In this document: one piece after another, positions 18,154 to 52,100 of the stretch
Layout of the letters: the number at the start of each line of letters is the position of its first letter
Position numbering within the stretch: position 1 is the first letter of the stretch
DNA from: Solirubrobacterales bacterium
Lineage (GTDB): Bacteria; Bacillota; Syntrophomonadia; Syntrophomonadales; DTU052
DNA: 64,000 nt
Assembly: GCA_050258755.1 (NCBI GenBank)
Contig: JBLMZI010000012.1
Location: forward strand, 38,768-102,767
Direction of reading: 5' to 3'
Made by a program: the position numbers and the translations under genes
Notes under the pieces: model-generated
What the model saw: the letters and a program-made list of their open reading frames with translations, nothing else
Database searches by the model: none
Told to the model about the DNA's origin: nothing

Positions 18154-18227
18154 GCGGGTGTAGCTCAATGGCAGAGCTCCAGCCTTCCAAGCTGATTGCG
18201 TGGGTTCGATTCCCATCACCCGCTCCA
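18154..18227 (+). tRNA. tRNA-Gly (anticodon TCC), CCA encoded
   Basis: Hand-folded cloverleaf. Acceptor GCGGGTG/CACCCGC, anticodon loop CTTCCAA, T-loop GGTTCGATTCC. Confidence 0.85.
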
Positions 18228-18232
18228 ATATT

Positions 18233-18309
18233 GTCCCTGTAGCTCAGCCGGACAGAGCAACGGCCTTCTAAGCCGTGGGTCGGGGGTTCGAATCCCTCCG
18301 GGGACGCCA
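18233..18309 (+). tRNA. tRNA-Arg (anticodon TCT), CCA encoded
   Basis: Acceptor GTCCCTG/CGGGGAC, anticodon stem ACGGC/GCCGT with loop CTTCTAA, T-loop GGTTCGAATCC. Confidence 0.9.
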
Positions 18310-18313
18310 ATAT

Positions 18314-18391
18314 GGTGGGCGTAGCTCAGTTGGATAGAGCACCAGATTGTGGCTCTGGGGGTCGTGGGTTCAAGCCCCATCGCTCACCCCA
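18314..18391 (+). tRNA. tRNA-His (anticodon GTG) with encoded G-1 and CCA
   Basis: Extra 5' G, anticodon stem CCAGA/TCTGG with loop TTGTGGC, T-loop GGTTCAAGCCC. Confidence 0.9.
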
Positions 18392-18451
18392 AATTCAAAT
18401 TGACATGAGGTTTTGCCTCGTTATATGATATTTAGCGTTGGGAAATCGCGC

Positions 18452-18526
18452 GGGGGTGTAGCCAAACGGCAAGGCAACGGACTCTGACTCCGTCATCTGT
18501 TGGTTCGAATCCAGCCACCCCTGCCA
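18452..18526 (+). tRNA. tRNA-Gln (anticodon CTG), CCA encoded
   Basis: Anticodon stem ACGGA/TCCGT with loop CTCTGAC, T-loop GGTTCGAATCC, acceptor GGGGGTG/CACCCCT. Confidence 0.85.
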
Positions 18527-18561
18527 AATTATTGAGGGTTCGGACGACATTCATAACGCGG

Positions 18562-18636
18562 TGGGGTGTCGCCAAGCGGTAAGGCACCAGACTTTGACTC
18601 TGGCATGCGTTGGTTCGAATCCAGCCACCCCAGCCA
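18562..18636 (+). tRNA. tRNA-Gln (anticodon TTG), CCA encoded
   Basis: Acceptor TGGGGTG/CACCCCA, anticodon stem CCAGA/TCTGG with loop CTTTGAC. Confidence 0.9.
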
Positions 18637-18657
18637 TCTTTGGAAACAGAATTGTGT

Positions 18658-18733
18658 GGGCCATTAGCTCAGCCGGTAGAGCACCTGACTTTTAATCAGG
18701 GTGTCGTTGGTTCGAGTCCAACATGGCTCACCA
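18658..18733 (+). tRNA. tRNA-Lys (anticodon TTT), CCA encoded
   Basis: Acceptor GGGCCAT/ATGGCTC, anticodon stem CCTGA/TCAGG with loop CTTTTAA, T-loop GGTTCGAGTCC. Confidence 0.9.
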
Positions 18734-30953: not shown

Positions 30954-31166
30954 ATGACGGCAAAAGTTGAGAAGCTCAATGTGGAAGGGATGTCCTGCGG
31001 CCACTGCGAAGCCAGTGTGAAAAAGGCGGTTGGCGCCCTGGCGGGCGTGGACGAGGTGGATGTGGACCTGAAAGGGAAATCGGTCTCGGTGAAGTTTGAC
31101 CCGGAAAAAGTTTCATTGAACGCGATCAAGGAGGCCATCGAAGAACAGGGTTACGACGTTAAATAA
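30954..31166 (+). CDS. copZ: Copper chaperone CopZ (single HMA domain)
   Basis: MTAKVEKLNVEGMSCGHCEASVKKAV.... SD GAGGGAGG lies before the ATG at 30954; the track ORF starts at 30906. Confidence 0.9.
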   Translation: MTAKVEKLNVEGMSCGHCEASVKKAVGALAGVDEVDVDLKGKSVSVKFDPEKVSLNAIKEAIEEQGYDVK

Positions 31167-31205
31167 GGCTGATCGGTCTTTGCGGGAATCAAATCATAAA
31201 CGACG

Positions 31206-31235
31206 ATGAAGGCGCCAAGGCGCCTTCATTTTTTT
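31206..31235 (+). terminator. Intrinsic terminator of copZ
   Basis: 10-bp stem ATGAAGGCGC/GCGCCTTCAT followed by T7. Confidence 0.85.
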
Positions 31236-31276
31236 GCCCCGCAGGCCGCGGCATGGCGAACAGATGGGAAGGACGC

Positions 31277-31487
31277 GGGGAAAGGCGTTTGGTACCTGGG
31301 CCCCGCCCCGACGCCTATACTTCTCCGGCTTACTTCGGGTTGCAGAACCAACCTGGGACACCCGGCGTCCTTGCCGGGTCCCAGGAAACCGGCATCCATG
31401 CCGGTCTGAACCTGCAACGGTTCCGAAAGCCTCACCGGGAAGTATGACGGCGCCGGGGCGGGGCCCAGGTACCGAACGCCTTTCCCC
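31277..31487. other. 211-nt near-perfect extended inverted repeat / branched hairpin of unknown function (structured RNA or MITE-like element)
   Basis: 34-nt arms at 31277-31310 and 31454-31487 are complementary at 33 positions plus one T-G. Pairing continues inward (4, 7, 4, 6 and 7 bp segments) to a junction bearing two hairpins (31352-31385; 31388-31405 with a TCCA loop). There is no credible CDS. Confidence 0.6.
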
Positions 31488-31532
31488 ACTGGGCATACCT
31501 ATGGGCGGAATCCGCCTCGTGTGATGCTGTTG

Positions 31533-31725
31533 TGCATTGGCGAAACCCGAGGCGCTGCAGTCGTGGGAATTAGATAATGCAATGGCGCATCGATCCGACT
31601 GGAGCGGCAGAGTGTAATAATGCCAGGGAAAACGGAATGCAATGGGATGAGACGAACTGGCTTGCCGCGGCCATCACAGGCTGATCGATGCAACAATGCA
31701 TCAACAAACAATGCCAAAACGCATT
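31533..31725. promoter_or_regulatory. Candidate upstream activator sequences for the sigma-54 promoter
   Basis: TGCAWTGGSR at 31533, 31578 and 31638. Palindrome GATGCA-ACAA-TGCATC at 31687-31702. AATGC-N6-GCATT at 31710-31725. All lie 100-290 bp upstream of the -24 element. Confidence 0.4.
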
Positions 31726-31822: not shown

Positions 31823-31838
31823 TGGCACGGGTTTTGCA
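31823..31838 (+). promoter_or_regulatory. Sigma-54 (-24/-12) promoter
   Basis: TGGCAC-GGGTT-TTGCA matches the consensus TGGCAC-N5-TTGCW exactly. It faces the acyl-CoA dehydrogenase operon, and a bEBP gene lies at the end of that operon. Confidence 0.8.
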
Positions 31839-36704: not shown

Positions 36705-38783
36705 CTATTGCTGGGGTTTGATGCCGTATTTGGCGGCTTTGCGGACAATGGTGGATTGGTTGACTTTGAGGGCCTTGGCGATTTGATAGGTGGAATCGTA
36801 CCGCGCGAAGGCGGCTTTTAGAATTTGATGCTCCAGGCTATCCATGGCGTCTTTGAGCGGCATGATTTCCGGTTCGGCAGCGGCCGCAGCCGGAATGGTC
36901 TGCAGATAGGCGGGCAGTTCGCCGGCATCAATGACGTTTTCTACGCTGGTGACCATCATCCGCTCGATCAGGTTTTCCAGCTCACGGACATTGCCCGGCC
37001 AGTCATAGCGCATCAGGCTATCGATCACTTCCGGACTGACCCGCTTGTTCATGTGATAACGCTGGTTAAAAAGATCGAGGAAATGGAGAATCAGCGCCGG
37101 AATATCTTCTCTGCGCTCTCTGAGCGGCGGGACCTGAATCGGGACCACGTTCAGACGGTAGAACAAATCCATCCGGAACTGTTTGGTCTTGATCATTTCG
37201 GTCAGATCCTGATTGGTGCCGGCCAGAATGCGGATGTCGATGTTGATCGGCTTGGTGCCGCCGACCCGGGTCAGCTGGCGCTCCTGAAGCACCCGGAGCA
37301 GTTTGACCTGCAGGTTCATGGGCAGTTCGGCGATTTCGTCCAGGAAGATGGTGCCGCCGCCGGCCAGCTCGAACAGGCCGGGTTTTCCCGTTTTGCTGGC
37401 GCCGGTGAAGGCGCCGGGTTCATAGCCGAACAGCTCGGATTCCAGCAGGTTTTCCGGGATGGCGCCGCAGTTGACCTTGATAAACGGGCCGTCCCGGCGT
37501 TCGCTGTTGGCGTGGATGATGTCGGCGATCATTTCTTTGCCCACACCGGATTCGCCCTGAATAAAAACGGTCGAATCGACCGCCGCCAATCGGACCGCCA
37601 GTTGGAGCAAATCCTGCATTTTGCCGGAACGTGCCACGACCTTCCGGGTGCTGCTCAGAGTCAGCTGTTCCAGTTTGGTCCGGTAGAACTGGCTCAAGCC
37701 TTCAGCCTGCTCAAGCTTGCGCTGGAGATCGCTTAATTCGGTGACGTCCCGGACATTGGTGACCACTAGGACAATATTGCCGGCTTCATCAAAGATCGGA
37801 TTGCTGGTGACCAGGACCCACTTGCCGGTCCGGGCCTGCAGGGTAATGGTGACCCGTTCACGCTTTTCGATCGCCAGCAGGGAACCGGAACGGGAATAGA
37901 CCCCGGTTTCCACCAGTTCTGCCATGTTCCGCCCGATACATTCCTCTTTAGGCACGCCGGTGATACGGCAGAAGCCCTGATTCACCCGAAGGGTGGTTCC
38001 TTCGCCGTCAGTGACGTACAGCCCGTCAAAAGAGGATTCGATGATCGCATCCAGCTCGCTCGCCAGCCGTTTGGTGGATTCGAGTTCCTGGGAAATGGTT
38101 TCGAGTTCTGAAACGTCCTGCATGACGGCAACCGCGCCGACGATCTGACCATTTTTAATAATCGGGGAGCGGTTGGAAATGAAGACCCGGTCGCCAACCA
38201 CAATTTTCTGGGTGGAACGCGCCTCGCCGGTTTCGAGGATTTCCAGCAATCCGGTATTTTTAAAGATTTCTTTGATATTGCGGCCTTGAATATTCCTGGC
38301 GGTCCGCCCCAGAATCTTTTCCAGGGCTTTGTTGAAGCTTCTGATGTTTCCCTGTGCGTCGATGGAAACCAGGGGATTGTGCATGGCATTGCCGATCGCC
38401 TGCAGGTCTTCGCTGGCGCGGGCCCACATCTGTCCCATAGCGGTTAGCATGTCCGAGCGGGTGATATAGCCGGTCAATTTCCCGTCTTTTATCACGGGCA
38501 GGCTGGATTGGGCGCTTTCCCAGAAGTCTCGAATGTCGTCCTCTTCGGACAAGGTGTTGACGTTGGCAGCGGTAAGCCGAATGACTGGCGTTTCGGGGGA
38601 AAGCCCCTTGAAAAGAACCTCCAGCAGGCGGCTTTTTGAGACAATGCCCAGCAGCCGGTGTTCGGCATCCAAAACCGGGGCGTCGTCAATCCCGTGTTCA
38701 TTCAGCAGACGCGCTACTTCGACGGCGGTCTGATTCGGACGGACGGTGATCGGATTCGGATTCATCAGGTTACGGCTGAGCAT
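36705..38783 (-). CDS. Sigma-54-dependent transcriptional activator (CBS pair, two PAS, AAA+, Fis-type HTH)
   Basis: GESGVGKE Walker A, an intact GAFTGA loop, a C-terminal HTH (STYQIAKALKVNQSTIVRK) and an N-terminal CBS pair. The ATG at 38783 is preferred over the track start at 39005. Confidence 0.9.
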   Translation of the reverse strand: MLSRNLMNPNPITVRPNQTAVEVARLLNEHGIDDAPVLDAEHRLLGIVSKSRLLEVLFKGLSPETPVIRLTAANVNTLSEEDDIRDFWESAQSSLPVIKDGKLTGYITRSDMLTAMGQMWARASEDLQAIGNAMHNPLVSIDAQGNIRSFNKALEKILGRTARNIQGRNIKEIFKNTGLLEILETGEARSTQKIVVGDRVFISNRSPIIKNGQIVGAVAVMQDVSELETISQELESTKRLASELDAIIESSFDGLYVTDGEGTTLRVNQGFCRITGVPKEECIGRNMAELVETGVYSRSGSLLAIEKRERVTITLQARTGKWVLVTSNPIFDEAGNIVLVVTNVRDVTELSDLQRKLEQAEGLSQFYRTKLEQLTLSSTRKVVARSGKMQDLLQLAVRLAAVDSTVFIQGESGVGKEMIADIIHANSERRDGPFIKVNCGAIPENLLESELFGYEPGAFTGASKTGKPGLFELAGGGTIFLDEIAELPMNLQVKLLRVLQERQLTRVGGTKPINIDIRILAGTNQDLTEMIKTKQFRMDLFYRLNVVPIQVPPLRERREDIPALILHFLDLFNQRYHMNKRVSPEVIDSLMRYDWPGNVRELENLIERMMVTSVENVIDAGELPAYLQTIPAAAAAEPEIMPLKDAMDSLEHQILKAAFARYDSTYQIAKALKVNQSTIVRKAAKYGIKPQQ

Positions 38784-39059
38784 GCCAGATCCCCAGTCTT
38801 TTTCCAGTTTCCTAAACCTTATTATACCATGCCGGGTGTGCATTTTTCGGGTGTAGCTGGCTGTCAGCCGATTGAAAAACTGGCCGCATGATCCGATGCG
38901 TTTCGGCGAATGCACTATTTTTCGCCAGATTATTAAGCGATGTTCGTGAAGAATTAACCTTCTGTTAACGTTGCCGGGCAAGCAATTTATTAGAATAAGA
39001 AACAAACGGAATGCTTGTATCTATTTTAGCCCTGCTTTCACGGGTAAGGGCATGGCCAA

Positions 39060-39595: not shown

Positions 39596-40948
39596 TTATC
39601 TCAGCCCGTGTTTTTCCATCCGATAAATCAAGGTATAGCGGGTCATTCCCAGCAGGGCTGCCGCCCGGGTTTGATTGCCGCCCGCGCGTTCCAGCGCTTG
39701 AACGATCAGACTTCGCTCCAAGGCCTCCAGGTTCATTCCTCCGGGCGGAAGGGTGAGGCCGGATTCACCGGTGACGCCGCCGGGGTGAAGCACTTCGGCG
39801 GGCAGCAGTTCGGGACCGATCACAGATTGGGTGGTCAGGATCACTGCCCGCTCCAAAACGTTCTGCAGTTCGCGGACATTACCGGGCCAGGGATAGGCTG
39901 TCAGCAGCCGCAGGGTCTCGTCCGCGAGGCGCAGCGGCGGACGGCCCAATTCCGCCGCATAATGCTTAACAAAAAAAACGGCAAGATCGGGTATGTCTTC
40001 ACGCCTTAACCGAAGCGGCGGAACTTCGATGCGCACCACGTTCAGCCGGTAGTACAGGTCTTCCCGGAATTGACCGGTCTGAATTGCGGCGGTCAGGTCC
40101 CGGTTGGTTGCGGCGATGACCCGAACGTCGACTTTGATCGTCTCGGTGCCGCCAACCCGTTCGAATTCCTTTTCCTGCAGTATCCGCAGCAATTTGACCT
40201 GCATATTTAACGGCAGTTCGCCGATCTCGTCCAGAAAGAGGGTCCCGTGATCGGCGCGCTCGAAACGGCCGGCTTTCCTGGATACGGCCCCGGTAAAGGC
40301 GCCTTTTTCATGGCCAAACAGTTCGCTTTCGATCAGGTTTTCCGGAATGGCGGCACAGTTGACCTTGATCATCGGTTGGTCGCGGCGCGGGCTGAGCCGG
40401 TGCACCGAAAGCGCTACCAGTTCTTTGCCGGTGCCGCTTTCGCCGGTAACCAGGACGGTTGCCGGAGCCGCGGCGACCTGTTGAATCAGCATGCCGAGGT
40501 TTTTCATCGCCGGGGAACTGCCCACGACATCGGGCAGCGCTTCGCTGGCGGCTTCCTGTCGCCAGAATCGGACTTCATCCTTTAATTTTTCGATTCCCAG
40601 CGCTTTGGCAACGGAAAGCTTGACCGCCTCGATTTCAAACGGTTTCAAAATGACGTCGCTGGCGCCGCGTTTCATCGCCTCAACCGCGGTTTCGATGGTT
40701 CCAAAGCCGGTGATCATTATTAAGGGCAAACCGGGTTCGGTTTCCCGGATTCGGGCCAGTAATTCCAGGCCGTCCATTCCGGGCATTTTGTAATCACACA
40801 GAATCAGGTCGGGGGTTTCTTTCCGAACCGCCGCTAAAGCGGTTTGGCCGTTTTCGCGGGAGATGATCTGATGCCCGTCCTTTTTCAGGGCTTTTTCCAG
40901 GGCCCAACGCATGTTGGCATCGTCATCGACGATGAGAATCAAAGCCAT
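39596..40948 (-). CDS. NtrC-family sigma-54-dependent response regulator (REC, AAA+, Fis HTH)
   Basis: MALILIVDDD... receiver domain, GESGTGKE, an intact GAFTGA and a C-terminal HTH. Confidence 0.9.
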   Translation of the reverse strand: MALILIVDDDANMRWALEKALKKDGHQIISRENGQTALAAVRKETPDLILCDYKMPGMDGLELLARIRETEPGLPLIMITGFGTIETAVEAMKRGASDVILKPFEIEAVKLSVAKALGIEKLKDEVRFWRQEAASEALPDVVGSSPAMKNLGMLIQQVAAAPATVLVTGESGTGKELVALSVHRLSPRRDQPMIKVNCAAIPENLIESELFGHEKGAFTGAVSRKAGRFERADHGTLFLDEIGELPLNMQVKLLRILQEKEFERVGGTETIKVDVRVIAATNRDLTAAIQTGQFREDLYYRLNVVRIEVPPLRLRREDIPDLAVFFVKHYAAELGRPPLRLADETLRLLTAYPWPGNVRELQNVLERAVILTTQSVIGPELLPAEVLHPGGVTGESGLTLPPGGMNLEALERSLIVQALERAGGNQTRAAALLGMTRYTLIYRMEKHGLR

Positions 40949-42110: not shown

Positions 42111-44510
42111 CTATGCGAGCTTGACCCGTTTGAGGCGCAGCGCGTTGCTGACGACCGAGACAGAACTCAAAGCCATCGCGCCTCCGGCCAGGATTGGGCT
42201 TAACAGTCCGCTCGCGGCCAGCGGGATTCCGATGATGTTGTAGATAAAGGCCCAGAACAGGTTTTGCTTGATGTTGCGCATGGTGACGCGGCTGAGTTGA
42301 ATGGCGGTCACAATGGTGCGCAAATCACCGCGCATCAGTGTGATGTCGGCTGCTTCCATGGCGACATCGGTTCCGGTTCCCATGGCGATGCCGACATCAG
42401 CGGTGGCCAGGGCAGGAGCATCATTGATGCCGTCGCCCACCATCGCGACAATACGCCCGGCATCGCGTAGTTTTTGCACTTCATTGGCCTTTTCTTCCGG
42501 CAGCACTTCAGCCAGGATGTTGGTGATGCCGACTTCTTTCGCGATGGCGGATGCGGTCCGCCGGTTATCGCCGGTGATCATCCAGACATCAATACCCATT
42601 CCAGTCAGTTCCCGAATCGCCTGTGCTGAGGATTCCTTGACCCGGTCAGCCACCGCGAGCACCGCGGCCGGAGACTGGTCAACGGCCATAACGACCGTGG
42701 TTTTCCCGGAACCTTCAAGGGATTCAACCACCTGCCGCACCGGAGCGGTATCAACGCCCTCACTGGCCAGAAAGCGAAGCGTCCCAATCAAAACCGATTT
42801 GGATCCGATCCGGGCAGTCACCCCGTGTCCGGGAATGGCGTTGAATTCGTCCGGATCGTCGATCGTGGCCCCGGACAGCCGTTCCCGGACTCCGGCTACG
42901 ATTGCCTGCGCAATCGGGTGTTCCGACATTTTTTCGACCCGGGCGGCCAGGAGCAGTACTTCGCTTTCCTGTCCGGTGTAGGCTTCCAAGGGATGCACAT
43001 CAGTCAGTTCCGGCTCCCCTTTGGTGATGGTTCCGGTCTTATCAAGCACCACGGCAGTAATGCGGTGCGCTTGCTCCAGGTGTTCGCCCCCGCGGATGAG
43101 AATGCCGTTCTCAGCGCCGCGCCCGGTTCCAACCATGATGGAGGTCGGGGTCGCAAGCCCCATCGCGCAGGGACAGGCGATGACCAGGACGGCCGTGGCG
43201 TTGATCAGCGCATGGGCCAGATTGCCCGGGTCCAGCCACCAGAACCAGACCGCAAAGGTGGCCAGTGCGATAGCGATGACCGCCGGAACAAAATACCCAG
43301 CCACGATATCAGCGATCCGCTGAATGGGCGCCTTGGACCCCTGCGCTTCCTGAACCACGCGGATAATCTGCGCCAGGACCGTATCCCGCCCGACCCGGGT
43401 CGCTTCGACTTTCAGCAGGCCAAATTTATTAACCGTGGCGCCTGCGACCGGGTCCCCCGTATTTTTGTCAATCGGGACGCTCTCGCCGGTCAGCATGGAT
43501 TCGTCCACCGCGGAATAGCCTTCCCGCACGATGCCGTCAACCGGTATGCGCTCACCGGGGCGAACGATAACCAGGTCGCCGACCAGTACTTCGCCCGTCG
43601 GAATGTCCATCTCGATTCCGTCCCGAACCACCCGGGCGGTTTTTGGGGCCAATCCGACCAACTTCCGAATCGCGTCCGAGGTCCGGCCTTTGGCCAGGGC
43701 TTCAAGGTATTTGCCCAGCAGGATTAAAGTGATCAAAAGGGCGCTGACTTCAAAGTATAAGTGCGCTCCCGGCAGCCAAATTGCGGCTGCCAGGCTGTAA
43801 AAATAGGCGACACTGGTCCCCAGGGCCACCAGAACGTCCATATTGGCACTGCCGCTGCGCAGAGCCGCGAAGGCCCCGCGGTAAAAGATTGCTCCGGCGC
43901 CGAATTGGACCGGTGTCGCGAGCAGCAGCATAAATGGCAGCGACATCATCCAGGCCGGGAAATGGATGTTCAACGGCTCAAGAACCATCATCAATACAAA
44001 GGGGATCGAAAGAACCGCCGAAAAAAGAAGCATTCTCCGGCGGGTTTTCATTTCCTCAGATACATTGGGCGCGCTCAGTTCGTCGGCCAGGTTCTCCATG
44101 ATCCGGGCGCCATATCCGACCCGTTCAACCGCTTTGATGATCATGGACGGCGTCAATTCACCGGAAAAGAATTCAACCGCGGCGGTTTCCGTGGCCAGAT
44201 TGACAGCCGCTTTTTTGATGCCCGGCAGCCCGGCCAGCGATTTTTCAACCCGGGCGGAACAGGACGCGCAGGTCATTCCGTCGATCTTAAGATCCAATCG
44301 TTCCGGGGGAACCGAGTAGCCCAGATCTTCGATCCGATGAACAAAATCGGATACTCTGGCCTGGTCCGGGTCATATTCGACCGAGGCCTGCTCCATCGCC
44401 AGGTTGACATTGGCCCGCAGAACGCCGGGCGCCTTATTCAAGCCTTTTTCGATGCGGGCGGCGCAGGCGGCGCAGGTCATGCCCCCGATTTTCAGCATTA
44501 CTTTTTCCAT
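42111..44510 (-). CDS. copA: Cu(I)-type P1B heavy-metal translocating ATPase with two N-terminal HMA domains
   Basis: [15 protein letters not shown] and [15 protein letters not shown], a CPC motif ([11 protein letters not shown]), DKTGT and [15 protein letters not shown] lies 8 nt before the ATG at 44510. Confidence 0.9.
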
Positions 44511-44747
44511 CGCGGCTGCCTCCAATAATCTGCGGCGGGGAAACCATGCACCAGCCTTCCGCAGACGGGTTATTCATATTATTCCGGATTCGCTTCAGAA
44601 CCTATCATTAGAGGGGAAGACGAAACGAACACGCTTCACCACGAGTATATCATTTGCAGTTCGACATCCCTTGCGCCGGTCGGCCGATGCCTGCTTACGC
44701 CGGGACGATAGCGCGGGGCGGGGATTGATATCCGCGTCCCATCGGGC

Positions 44748-51007: not shown

Positions 51008-51925
51008 CTATCCAATCTTCTGCAGATCGTACGGCGTTTCCTGATAGACGTGGTAGTTCAGCCAGTTTGAGAACAGCAGATGGCCGTGGCTGCGCCACAG
51101 AACCCGGGGCGGCCGGTTGGGATCATCCTCCGGGAAGTAATTCACCGGAACATTGATGTTTATTCCTTTGCCGATATCCCGGTCATACTCGTTTTTCAAG
51201 GATTCCGGATCGTATTCCGAATGGCCCATGGCAAAGACCTGGCGGCCGTCCCGGCTGGCAGCCAGATAAACCCCGGCTTCGTCTGATTCGGCCAGGATTT
51301 CCAGCACAGGGACTTTTTCAATATCGCTGCGCAGCACCTCGGTGTGCCGGGAATGGGGCGCGAAGAACAGATCGTCGAATCCGCGAAGCAGCGGTTTGTT
51401 CAGGGCGCAAACCCGATGCTCGAAGATCCCGAACATTTTCCGCGGCAGACCGCGCTTCGGGATGCCGTAATGGTAATACAGACCGGCCTGGGCGCCGACG
51501 CAGATATGGAAGGTTGAATAGACATGGGTCCGGGTCCAGATCATGATGTCTTTCAATTCCTCCCAATAGGTCCATTCCTCGTATTCCAACTGCTCGACCG
51601 GCGCGCCGGTGATGATCATGCCGTCAAAACGGCGGCTGCTGACCTCGGCAAAGGTTTGATAGAAAAGGTCCAGGTGATCCTGGTCCGTATTCCTGGACTG
51701 GTGACTTTCCGGGCGAAGCAAAGTGACCTCCACCTGAAGCGGGGTATTTGCCAGCATGCGCAGCAGTTGGGTTTCGGTGACTTCTTTCTTCGGCATGATG
51801 TTCAGAATCGCGATTTTCAGGGGACGGATATCCTGGTGTTCCGCCCGCGCCTCGTTCATCACGAAAACGTTTTCGCTTTGCAGGATACTGCTGGCCGGCA
51901 GCCCGTCGGGAATAATAATTGGCAT
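51008..51925 (-). CDS. metA: Homoserine O-acyltransferase, MetA family
   Basis: [47 protein letters not shown].... The ATG at 51925 is preferred over the track start at 52006. Confidence 0.9.
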
Positions 51926-51961
51926 GGGTCGACACTCCTTTTTGTGGTGGATGTCCAGGTC

Positions 51962-52100
51962 CTGCGAAAAAGAAAAACCCCTTCCGCGAAGAGGCCGGGC
52001 CCTCATCTCTCGGAATCAATCCGCAGGAGTTAGCACCGTGCTGTGAAAAGCCGGTTGCCGGGCTTCATCGGGCCGTTCCCTCCGCCGCTCTTGATGAGAA
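51962..52100 (-). promoter_or_regulatory. SAM-I (S-box) riboswitch with terminator, leader of metA
   Basis: The minus-strand RNA reads TTCTCATCAAGAGCGGCGGAGGGAACGGCCCGATGAAGCCCGGCAACC...ACGGTGCTAACTCCTGCGG...GAGAGATGAG. This matches the S-box core. A CCTCTTC-GCG-GAAGGGG hairpin and TTTTTCTTTTT follow. Confidence 0.85.

Follow-up and report, generated by a model that had tools for sequence, protein, structure and literature searches.

The intergenic hairpin described here is, in our reading, a divergent relative of the TwoAYGGAY RNAs in the form that these take in Bacillota, encoded on the minus strand; we put the probability of this assignment at roughly 55%. In the whole stretch of DNA that was analysed (64 kb, called the window in the following), the hairpin occupies 211 nt and has about 68 closing pairs below a three-way junction, from which two smaller hairpins with GGA-containing loops emerge. 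This is the architecture, and also the order of hairpins, that has been published for TwoAYGGAY members. Coordinates of the parts are collected in Table 1.

The hairpin is exceptional within its surroundings. Its outer arms are complementary at 33 of 34 positions, with T31290/G31474 as the sole exception, just as the preliminary description of this DNA had it, and a repeat search extends them to 39 nt at 95% identity. Compared with its own reverse complement the element is about 97% identical over the outer 34 nt and about 70% identical further in. The interior consists of a basal stem that leads to the junction, where one hairpin is bipartite (7+5 bp) and the other has a single helix of 6-7 bp; this inward pairing up to a three-way junction with two hairpins had likewise been described before, and it is seen in the folds of both strands. 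RNA folding of 31260-31500, which had been proposed as a check, yields a strong hairpin each way, with minimum free energies of -160.5 kcal/mol (z -12.8) on the plus and -171.8 kcal/mol (z -12.6) on the minus strand, and none of 200 shuffles folded as well on either strand. The next-best inverted repeat in the window measures 26 nt at 81%, and the hairpin is the only long palindrome there.

Table 1. Parts of the element and the neighbouring terminator, in plus-strand coordinates of the window; minus marks features in the orientation of the proposed RNA.
Feature	Position	Strand	Description
Whole element	31277-31487	minus	Order on the minus strand: basal stem, hairpin 1, hairpin 2, basal stem; 68 closing pairs; MFE -165.6 kcal/mol
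Basal stem, outer arm, left (34 nt)	31277-31310		Agrees with the reverse complement of 31454-31487 at all positions but T31290, for which the other arm gives C
Basal stem, outer arm, right (34 nt)	31454-31487		Complementary to 31277-31310
Basal stem, inner imperfect part, left	31311-31350		Pairs with 31407-31453; bulges and internal loops; last closing pair 31350-31407
Basal stem, inner imperfect part, right	31407-31453		Partner of 31311-31350
Hairpin 1 (5' on minus)	31388-31405	minus	ACCGGC-AUGGAU-GCCGGU; hexaloop 31394-31399 fits AYGGAY; CAUGGAUG equals the Rfam consensus
Hairpin 2 (3' on minus), bipartite	31352-31385	minus	Outer stem CCUGGGAC/GUCCCAGG, GU bulge, inner stem CCGGC/GCCGG, hexaloop AAGGAC 31367-31372
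copZ intrinsic terminator	31205-31230		Terminator-like on both strands; 46 nt upstream of the element

The apex carries most of the specific information. On the minus strand the centres of the two GGA motifs lie 27 nt apart, and the inner 16 nt of hairpin 2 are a direct repeat of the core of hairpin 1: CCGGCGTCCTTGCCGG (starting at 31362) and CCGGCATCCATGCCGG (starting at 31389) agree at 14 of 16 positions. Because the two loops are alike in direct and not in inverted orientation, the apex is strand-specific. When the window was searched together with 1.3 Mb of other loci, 43 single hairpins with an ANGGAY hexaloop were counted, while pairs of such hairpins (at least 5 bp each, at most 60 nt apart) occurred at the element alone.

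TwoAYGGAY (Rfam RF01731) is a family of the Csr/Rsm clan CL00106 that was described by Weinberg et al. (2010; PMC2864571) and has recently been extended (bioRxiv 10.64898/2026.09.22.753630). In the published layout a very long basal stem carries two GGA-loop hairpins in sequence; the family was reported in Clostridia, and its closing stem was called "very large". For matches from Bacillota the recent preprint notes "an elongated basal stem", and it describes dispersed intergenic repeats in some genomes, with a copy number that varies in the manner of mobile elements (bioRxiv 10.64898/2026.09.22.753630). Two roles are suspected, that of a CsrA sponge and that of a mobile-element-like repeat. 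Gardner and Eldai proposed that TwoAYGGAY is a CsrA-binding sRNA of Clostridia. The motif is widespread, with 16,086 matches reported across Pseudomonas genomes, and the family has been without a demonstrated function since 2010. A 34-bp helix had been considered atypical in the preliminary description, which is correct for housekeeping RNAs; for TwoAYGGAY, however, a very large closing stem is a described trait.

The element reproduces this layout in every architectural respect that we measured. Two sequential hairpins arise through a three-way junction from a common, very long basal stem, and the alignments to both covariance models place the simple hairpin 5' and the bipartite hairpin 3'. 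Five published members that we folded with their flanks measure 184-263 nt, have 43-72 closing pairs and carry two apical GGA hairpins, so that the element lies within the published range in size and in closing-pair count. It is also intergenic, sits beside a terminator and comes from an apparently Clostridia-type host. Loop 1 (AUGGAU) fits AYGGAY exactly, whereas loop 2 (AAGGAC) has a purine at position 2, and several published seeds depart from the motif as well (AGGGAU, A-GGAC, ACG-AU). There are clear differences. Tandem G-A pairs, reported for one TwoAYGGAY stem (PMC4333381), are absent from the element, in which no more than a 2-nt GU bulge separates the two helices of hairpin 2; the seeds ABYJ381 and hgutS8 likewise lack such pairs. 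The linker between the hairpins is UU in the element and A in 14 of 14 aligned seeds. The outer stem is unusually perfect over its 34 bp, and the folding energy per nucleotide amounts to -0.78 kcal/mol compared with -0.3 to -0.57 kcal/mol in published members. GMTBT motifs were not found upstream of the element (0 occurrences). Finally, the seed alignment contains at least five copies from NC_008709, which we take to be Psychromonas ingrahamii, and four from NC_009454, presumably Pelotomaculum thermopropionicum, whereas the element is seen once in the window and is without flanking repeats or a duplication of its flanks.

The covariance model scores place the element outside the certified family. 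An Rfam search, suggested in the preliminary description and carried out here, gave no match at gathering threshold at the hairpin site. In a permissive search, 31352-31407 (minus) aligned locally with positions 49-108 of the 168-position TwoAYGGAY model at 21.6 bits, half of the gathering score of 43, and when 601 nt were searched with all families the match was not significant (E 0.97). The clan member RsmZ aligned to the element at 16.3 bits. We also built a covariance model of our own from 14 published seeds, leaving the element out; since a MAFFT alignment of the seeds loses the register of hairpin 2, the published column register was used instead. In a search of the whole window this model matches 31345-31411 (minus) along its full length with 16.3 bits (E 0.038, rank 2), a score at the top edge of the noise: in about 0.9 Mb searched, chance matches reached 15.8-16.8 bits, with 16.8 bits at 40440-40476 and 15.8 bits for a hairpin inside the ACAD gene of locus L004, and in 0.78 Mb of Syntrophomonadaceae DNA searched on both strands with filters off they went up to 15.8 bits. 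The match at 40440-40476 (plus) is a lone GGA-loop hairpin lying over a minus-strand ORF with sigma-54 response-regulator domains, and was treated as a false positive. As these scores are sub-threshold, we class the element as a divergent variant, short of certified membership. The earlier statement that the hairpin is unexplained by any feature stands as far as a match at gathering threshold is concerned, but it overlooks the TwoAYGGAY precedent on the minus strand. The same applies to the earlier choice between a novel RNA, a MITE-like element and a cruciform: a structured and possibly mobile-element-like palindrome it is, but the novelty falls away with the TwoAYGGAY architecture that precedes it. 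With little probability, the element could instead belong to an unrelated class of lineage-restricted structured palindromes.

A second sub-threshold locus bears on the question of divergent members. In Syntrophomonas wolfei subsp. methylbutyratica JCM 14075, the region L027:1894-2046 (minus) matches the full TwoAYGGAY model (1-168) with an Rfam score of 25.6 bits, again below 43, and our own model scores L027:1940-1999 at 23.9 bits (E 6e-4), a clear outlier among the covariance model searches. Like the element in the window it has a basal stem, an AGGAU hairpin and a bipartite AUGGAC hairpin, and lies in intergenic DNA about 80 nt from an intrinsic terminator. It differs in that its primary sequence has no similarity to the window element outside the loops and in that the basal stem is neither as long nor as perfect (z -3.2 as against -12.6). 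Since this locus matches the model over its full length despite a sub-threshold score, divergent TwoAYGGAY-like members do exist in this clade. The Rfam model under-scores the divergent forms of GC-rich syntrophic Clostridia, and therefore TwoAYGGAY is probably under-counted in Bacillota; the S. wolfei locus implies that Rfam detects too few of its members in Syntrophomonadaceae. An intergenic site adjoining an intrinsic terminator is common to the element, to the S. wolfei locus and to the copies in NC_009454. Two of the latter (2842760-2842205 and 444730-444176) show an arrangement of their own, in which a terminator-like hairpin of 24-27 nt stands, directly duplicated, on either side of an element of about 230-250 nt (none of 500 shuffles attained the alignment score). 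Judged from these sequences, intrinsic terminators may have been the insertion targets of the NC_009454 copies, a long stretch of target being duplicated in the process.

The element is located between two transcription units. Upstream lies copZ (30954-31166), which encodes an HMA domain and is followed by its intrinsic terminator; downstream, at a distance of 336 nt, a sigma-54 promoter with a perfect 12/12 match is found (TGGCACGGGTTTTGCA, 31823-31838), so that the position given in the preliminary description, after the copZ terminator and before a sigma-54 region, is correct. The promoter heads an operon for an acyl-CoA dehydrogenase, a thiolase and an acetyl-CoA hydrolase/transferase-family protein. 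Upstream of it the word AATGCAATGG occurs twice (31576, 31636), together with an inverted repeat (31570-31601 / 31677-31708), and these are likely binding sites of an enhancer-binding protein for the acyl-CoA dehydrogenase/thiolase operon. Further along, two genes for sigma-54 activators occupy about 36705-39005 and 39596-40948 (minus strand). The nearest homologues of the ACAD, from Syntrophomonas and Syntrophomonadaceae MAGs, are 86-88% identical, so that the host is probably related to that family, but their genes stand in a different order and have no copZ upstream; blastn of the intergenic DNA gave no match and hence no orthologous site to compare. No transposase, integrase, recombinase, reverse transcriptase or phage gene is encoded in the 64 kb window. 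The ORFs that overlap the hairpin on both strands had already been regarded as artefacts of the palindrome, in agreement with the finding that they have neither a Pfam domain nor a homologue: searches of 5.8 billion protein clusters with the minus-strand ORF and with a six-frame pseudo-protein gave no match and hence no translated copy of the element, and HMMER, run exhaustively on the plus-strand ORF, returned only two tandem-repeat surface proteins by way of a low-complexity stretch. Apart from the element, copZ lies about 11 kb from a copA-type P-type ATPase gene (42111-44525, minus), which is unusual for two genes that normally stand side by side, with the beta-oxidation operon and the sigma-54 regulators in the interval. 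The window further contains a SAM (S-box) riboswitch (52000-52100, minus; 84.7 bits) directly upstream of a gene for homoserine O-succinyltransferase (51008-52006, minus) and a cluster of six tRNA genes (18154-18730, plus).

It is conceivable, although we consider it unlikely, that the element is a lineage-specific MITE or a transposon remnant unrelated to TwoAYGGAY, with the arms as terminal inverted repeats, a transposase encoded elsewhere and GGA loops that arose by coincidence. Its 211 bp and its intergenic position are typical of such elements, and the long, near-perfect terminal repeats look the part, but the pairing runs far beyond a normal terminal repeat. Likewise, identity is 97% over the outer 34 nt and falls to about 70% in the interior, which would fit an element of which only the ends are constrained, whereas at the apex a GGA-loop hairpin is directly duplicated. 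The highest Rfam scores went to MITE-like plant miRNA-precursor hairpins (MIR1437 with 50 bits, and MIR820); we rejected these matches, which mirror the long helix only. What further counts against a plain MITE, one of the options of the preliminary description, is the lack of its usual traces: a target-site duplication of any length was not found (the flanks read GACGC and ACTGG, and their best local alignment equals the shuffle mean), a matching transposase is missing from the window, and a second copy was found neither there nor in the collections searched. The exact 20-mer of the inner half of the arm is absent from 185,579 species genomes, 241 M metagenome records and the viral contigs. 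That of the outer half is absent from the viral contigs and has a single metagenome match (L083), which we discarded as a chance match in coding DNA without an inverted repeat. The tandem apical-hairpin pattern has no occurrence in the viral contigs, and sensitive blastn against plasmids and phages gave nothing beyond a 25-nt chance match. The 20-mer scans require exact words, so that diverged relatives would be missed. Strong hairpins are probably often lost or split in short-read assemblies, so that database searches would miss other copies; in a Logan assembly of the same strain (SRR24085920) a contig ends inside the hairpin at 31362 and confirms only the left arm and 52 nt beyond it.

A palindrome that is neutral or acts at the level of DNA, with no role as RNA, is in our view rather improbable. 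It could be a cruciform, two inverted binding sites of a protein, 177 bp apart, or a quasi-palindrome that template switching perfected during replication. That the element is a single-copy orphan in all searches and that both strands fold nearly equally well would be expected in this case, and promoters near the element were found on neither strand (on the minus strand, no sigma-A or sigma-54 promoter within 230 nt). However, each of the three variants meets with a difficulty. Cruciform extrusion is unlikely with a 133-bp spacer such as the one between the arms, template switching leaves both the directly repeated GGA-loop apex and the close match to a described family unexplained, and for a pair of binding sites there is no known candidate protein.

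If the element acts as an RNA, the minus strand is the better candidate. The single T-G in the arms had been taken as a hint to a plus-strand RNA, and T31290-G31474 is indeed a wobble on the plus strand only. Against this, the mismatch A31311/C31453 becomes a wobble on the minus strand only, and the minus strand of the element forms more pairs (89 vs 83) at a lower energy (-165.6 vs -157.1 kcal/mol). G-U pairs number 6 on the minus and 3 on the plus strand; this asymmetry was dropped as a strand indicator, since it is uninformative. A plus-strand RNA could be a structured 3' extension of copZ read-through, or an sRNA whose UCC loops pair with Shine-Dalgarno sequences. We judge this very improbable. 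Transcription of copZ does head towards the element, but a strong terminator with a 7-T tract separates the two, and on the plus strand nothing of the terminator type was found after the element; the energy sides with the minus strand, and so, nominally, does the wobble count. The best bacterial Rfam match by E-value is on the plus strand, to the Pseudomonas sRNA P36 (E 0.017), but its 24 bits are below the gathering score of 36. P36 is a Pseudomonas family with a 61-position model of two hairpins that lacks a long basal stem. The weak full-length P36 match at 31349-31404 (plus) has the stretches CAACCUG and AAACCGG in common with the family and probably reflects a chance likeness of two GC-rich hairpins. 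For a transcript of the minus strand, the copZ terminator would be the only candidate for a 3' end.

An invertible switch, in which inversion of the 133-bp segment enclosed by the repeats, through a site-specific recombinase, would change expression of the neighbouring operon, is scarcely credible: the inverted repeats of 34-39 bp around a short intergenic segment upstream of an operon do resemble the geometry of the flagellar and cwpV switches of Clostridioides difficile, but in 31311-31453 no site resembling a promoter or a terminator was found, whichever way the segment is read, a recombinase is absent from the 64 kb, the operon has its own perfect sigma-54 promoter, the Logan assembly continues for 47 nt past the repeat in the same orientation without a branch at the boundary, and the segment is itself nearly palindromic, so that its inversion would change little. 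A retron, a single-strand origin, an attC site, 6S RNA, a Y-RNA and an IS200/IS605 end were dropped as candidates, as the window encodes no reverse transcriptase, replication protein, integrase or TnpA/TnpB and Rfam lends none of them support.

Taking the element as a divergent TwoAYGGAY relative, the likeliest working model of its action can be sketched. A transcript of the minus strand would fold into the long hairpin, whose basal stem would present the two GGA loops at a spacing that one CsrA dimer could bridge; Mercante and colleagues are said to have found in 2009 that one dimer can bridge two sites, and 27 nt would be within range. The RNA might then act as a decoy that titrates CsrA, and the long stem might stabilise it or be trimmed by RNase III. 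The gene csrA is absent from the 64 kb window, and a literature search for CsrA in Syntrophomonas or Pelotomaculum yielded nothing useful. One may go further and imagine a domesticated, single-copy RNA of the TwoAYGGAY type whose minus-strand transcription diverges from that of the sigma-54-dependent beta-oxidation operon and draws on the same activator sites; by titrating CsrA, the RNA would couple the fatty-acid catabolism of a syntrophic, Clostridia-type bacterium to global post-transcriptional control. This is a speculative extension to which we give little credence. If it were true, it would be the first function of a TwoAYGGAY RNA and the first CsrA-sponge RNA in Bacillota. With its single copy, its near-perfect 34-bp stem and its simple context, a terminator on one side and a sigma-54 regulatory region on the other, the element would be a convenient test case for transcription, for processing by RNase III and for the binding of CsrA.

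Among the known systems, the bacterial MITEs and palindromic repeats (Correia, ERIC, RUP, REP/BIME) resemble the element as intergenic units of about 200 bp with long terminal inverted repeats and a hairpin at the RNA level. They differ from it in that the element has no target-site duplication, no further copies in the collections searched and no matching transposase in the window, and pairs along its whole length. The sponge sRNAs of the Csr/Rsm type (CsrB, RsmY, RsmZ), which are established only in Gammaproteobacteria (PMC4333381), likewise expose GGA in hairpin loops with C-G closing pairs (CANGGANG), and the element aligns weakly with RsmZ. In contrast to these RNAs, which carry roughly 5 to 20 GGA loops, the element has two, and the long perfect helix on which they stand is absent from the sponge sRNAs; it has no identified promoter or dedicated terminator, only the shared copZ terminator downstream, and its partner CsrA is putative. 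For the annotation of the window, what the comparison with TwoAYGGAY chiefly brings is clarity: there is a plausible known relative of the hairpin, which does not represent a new class of RNA.
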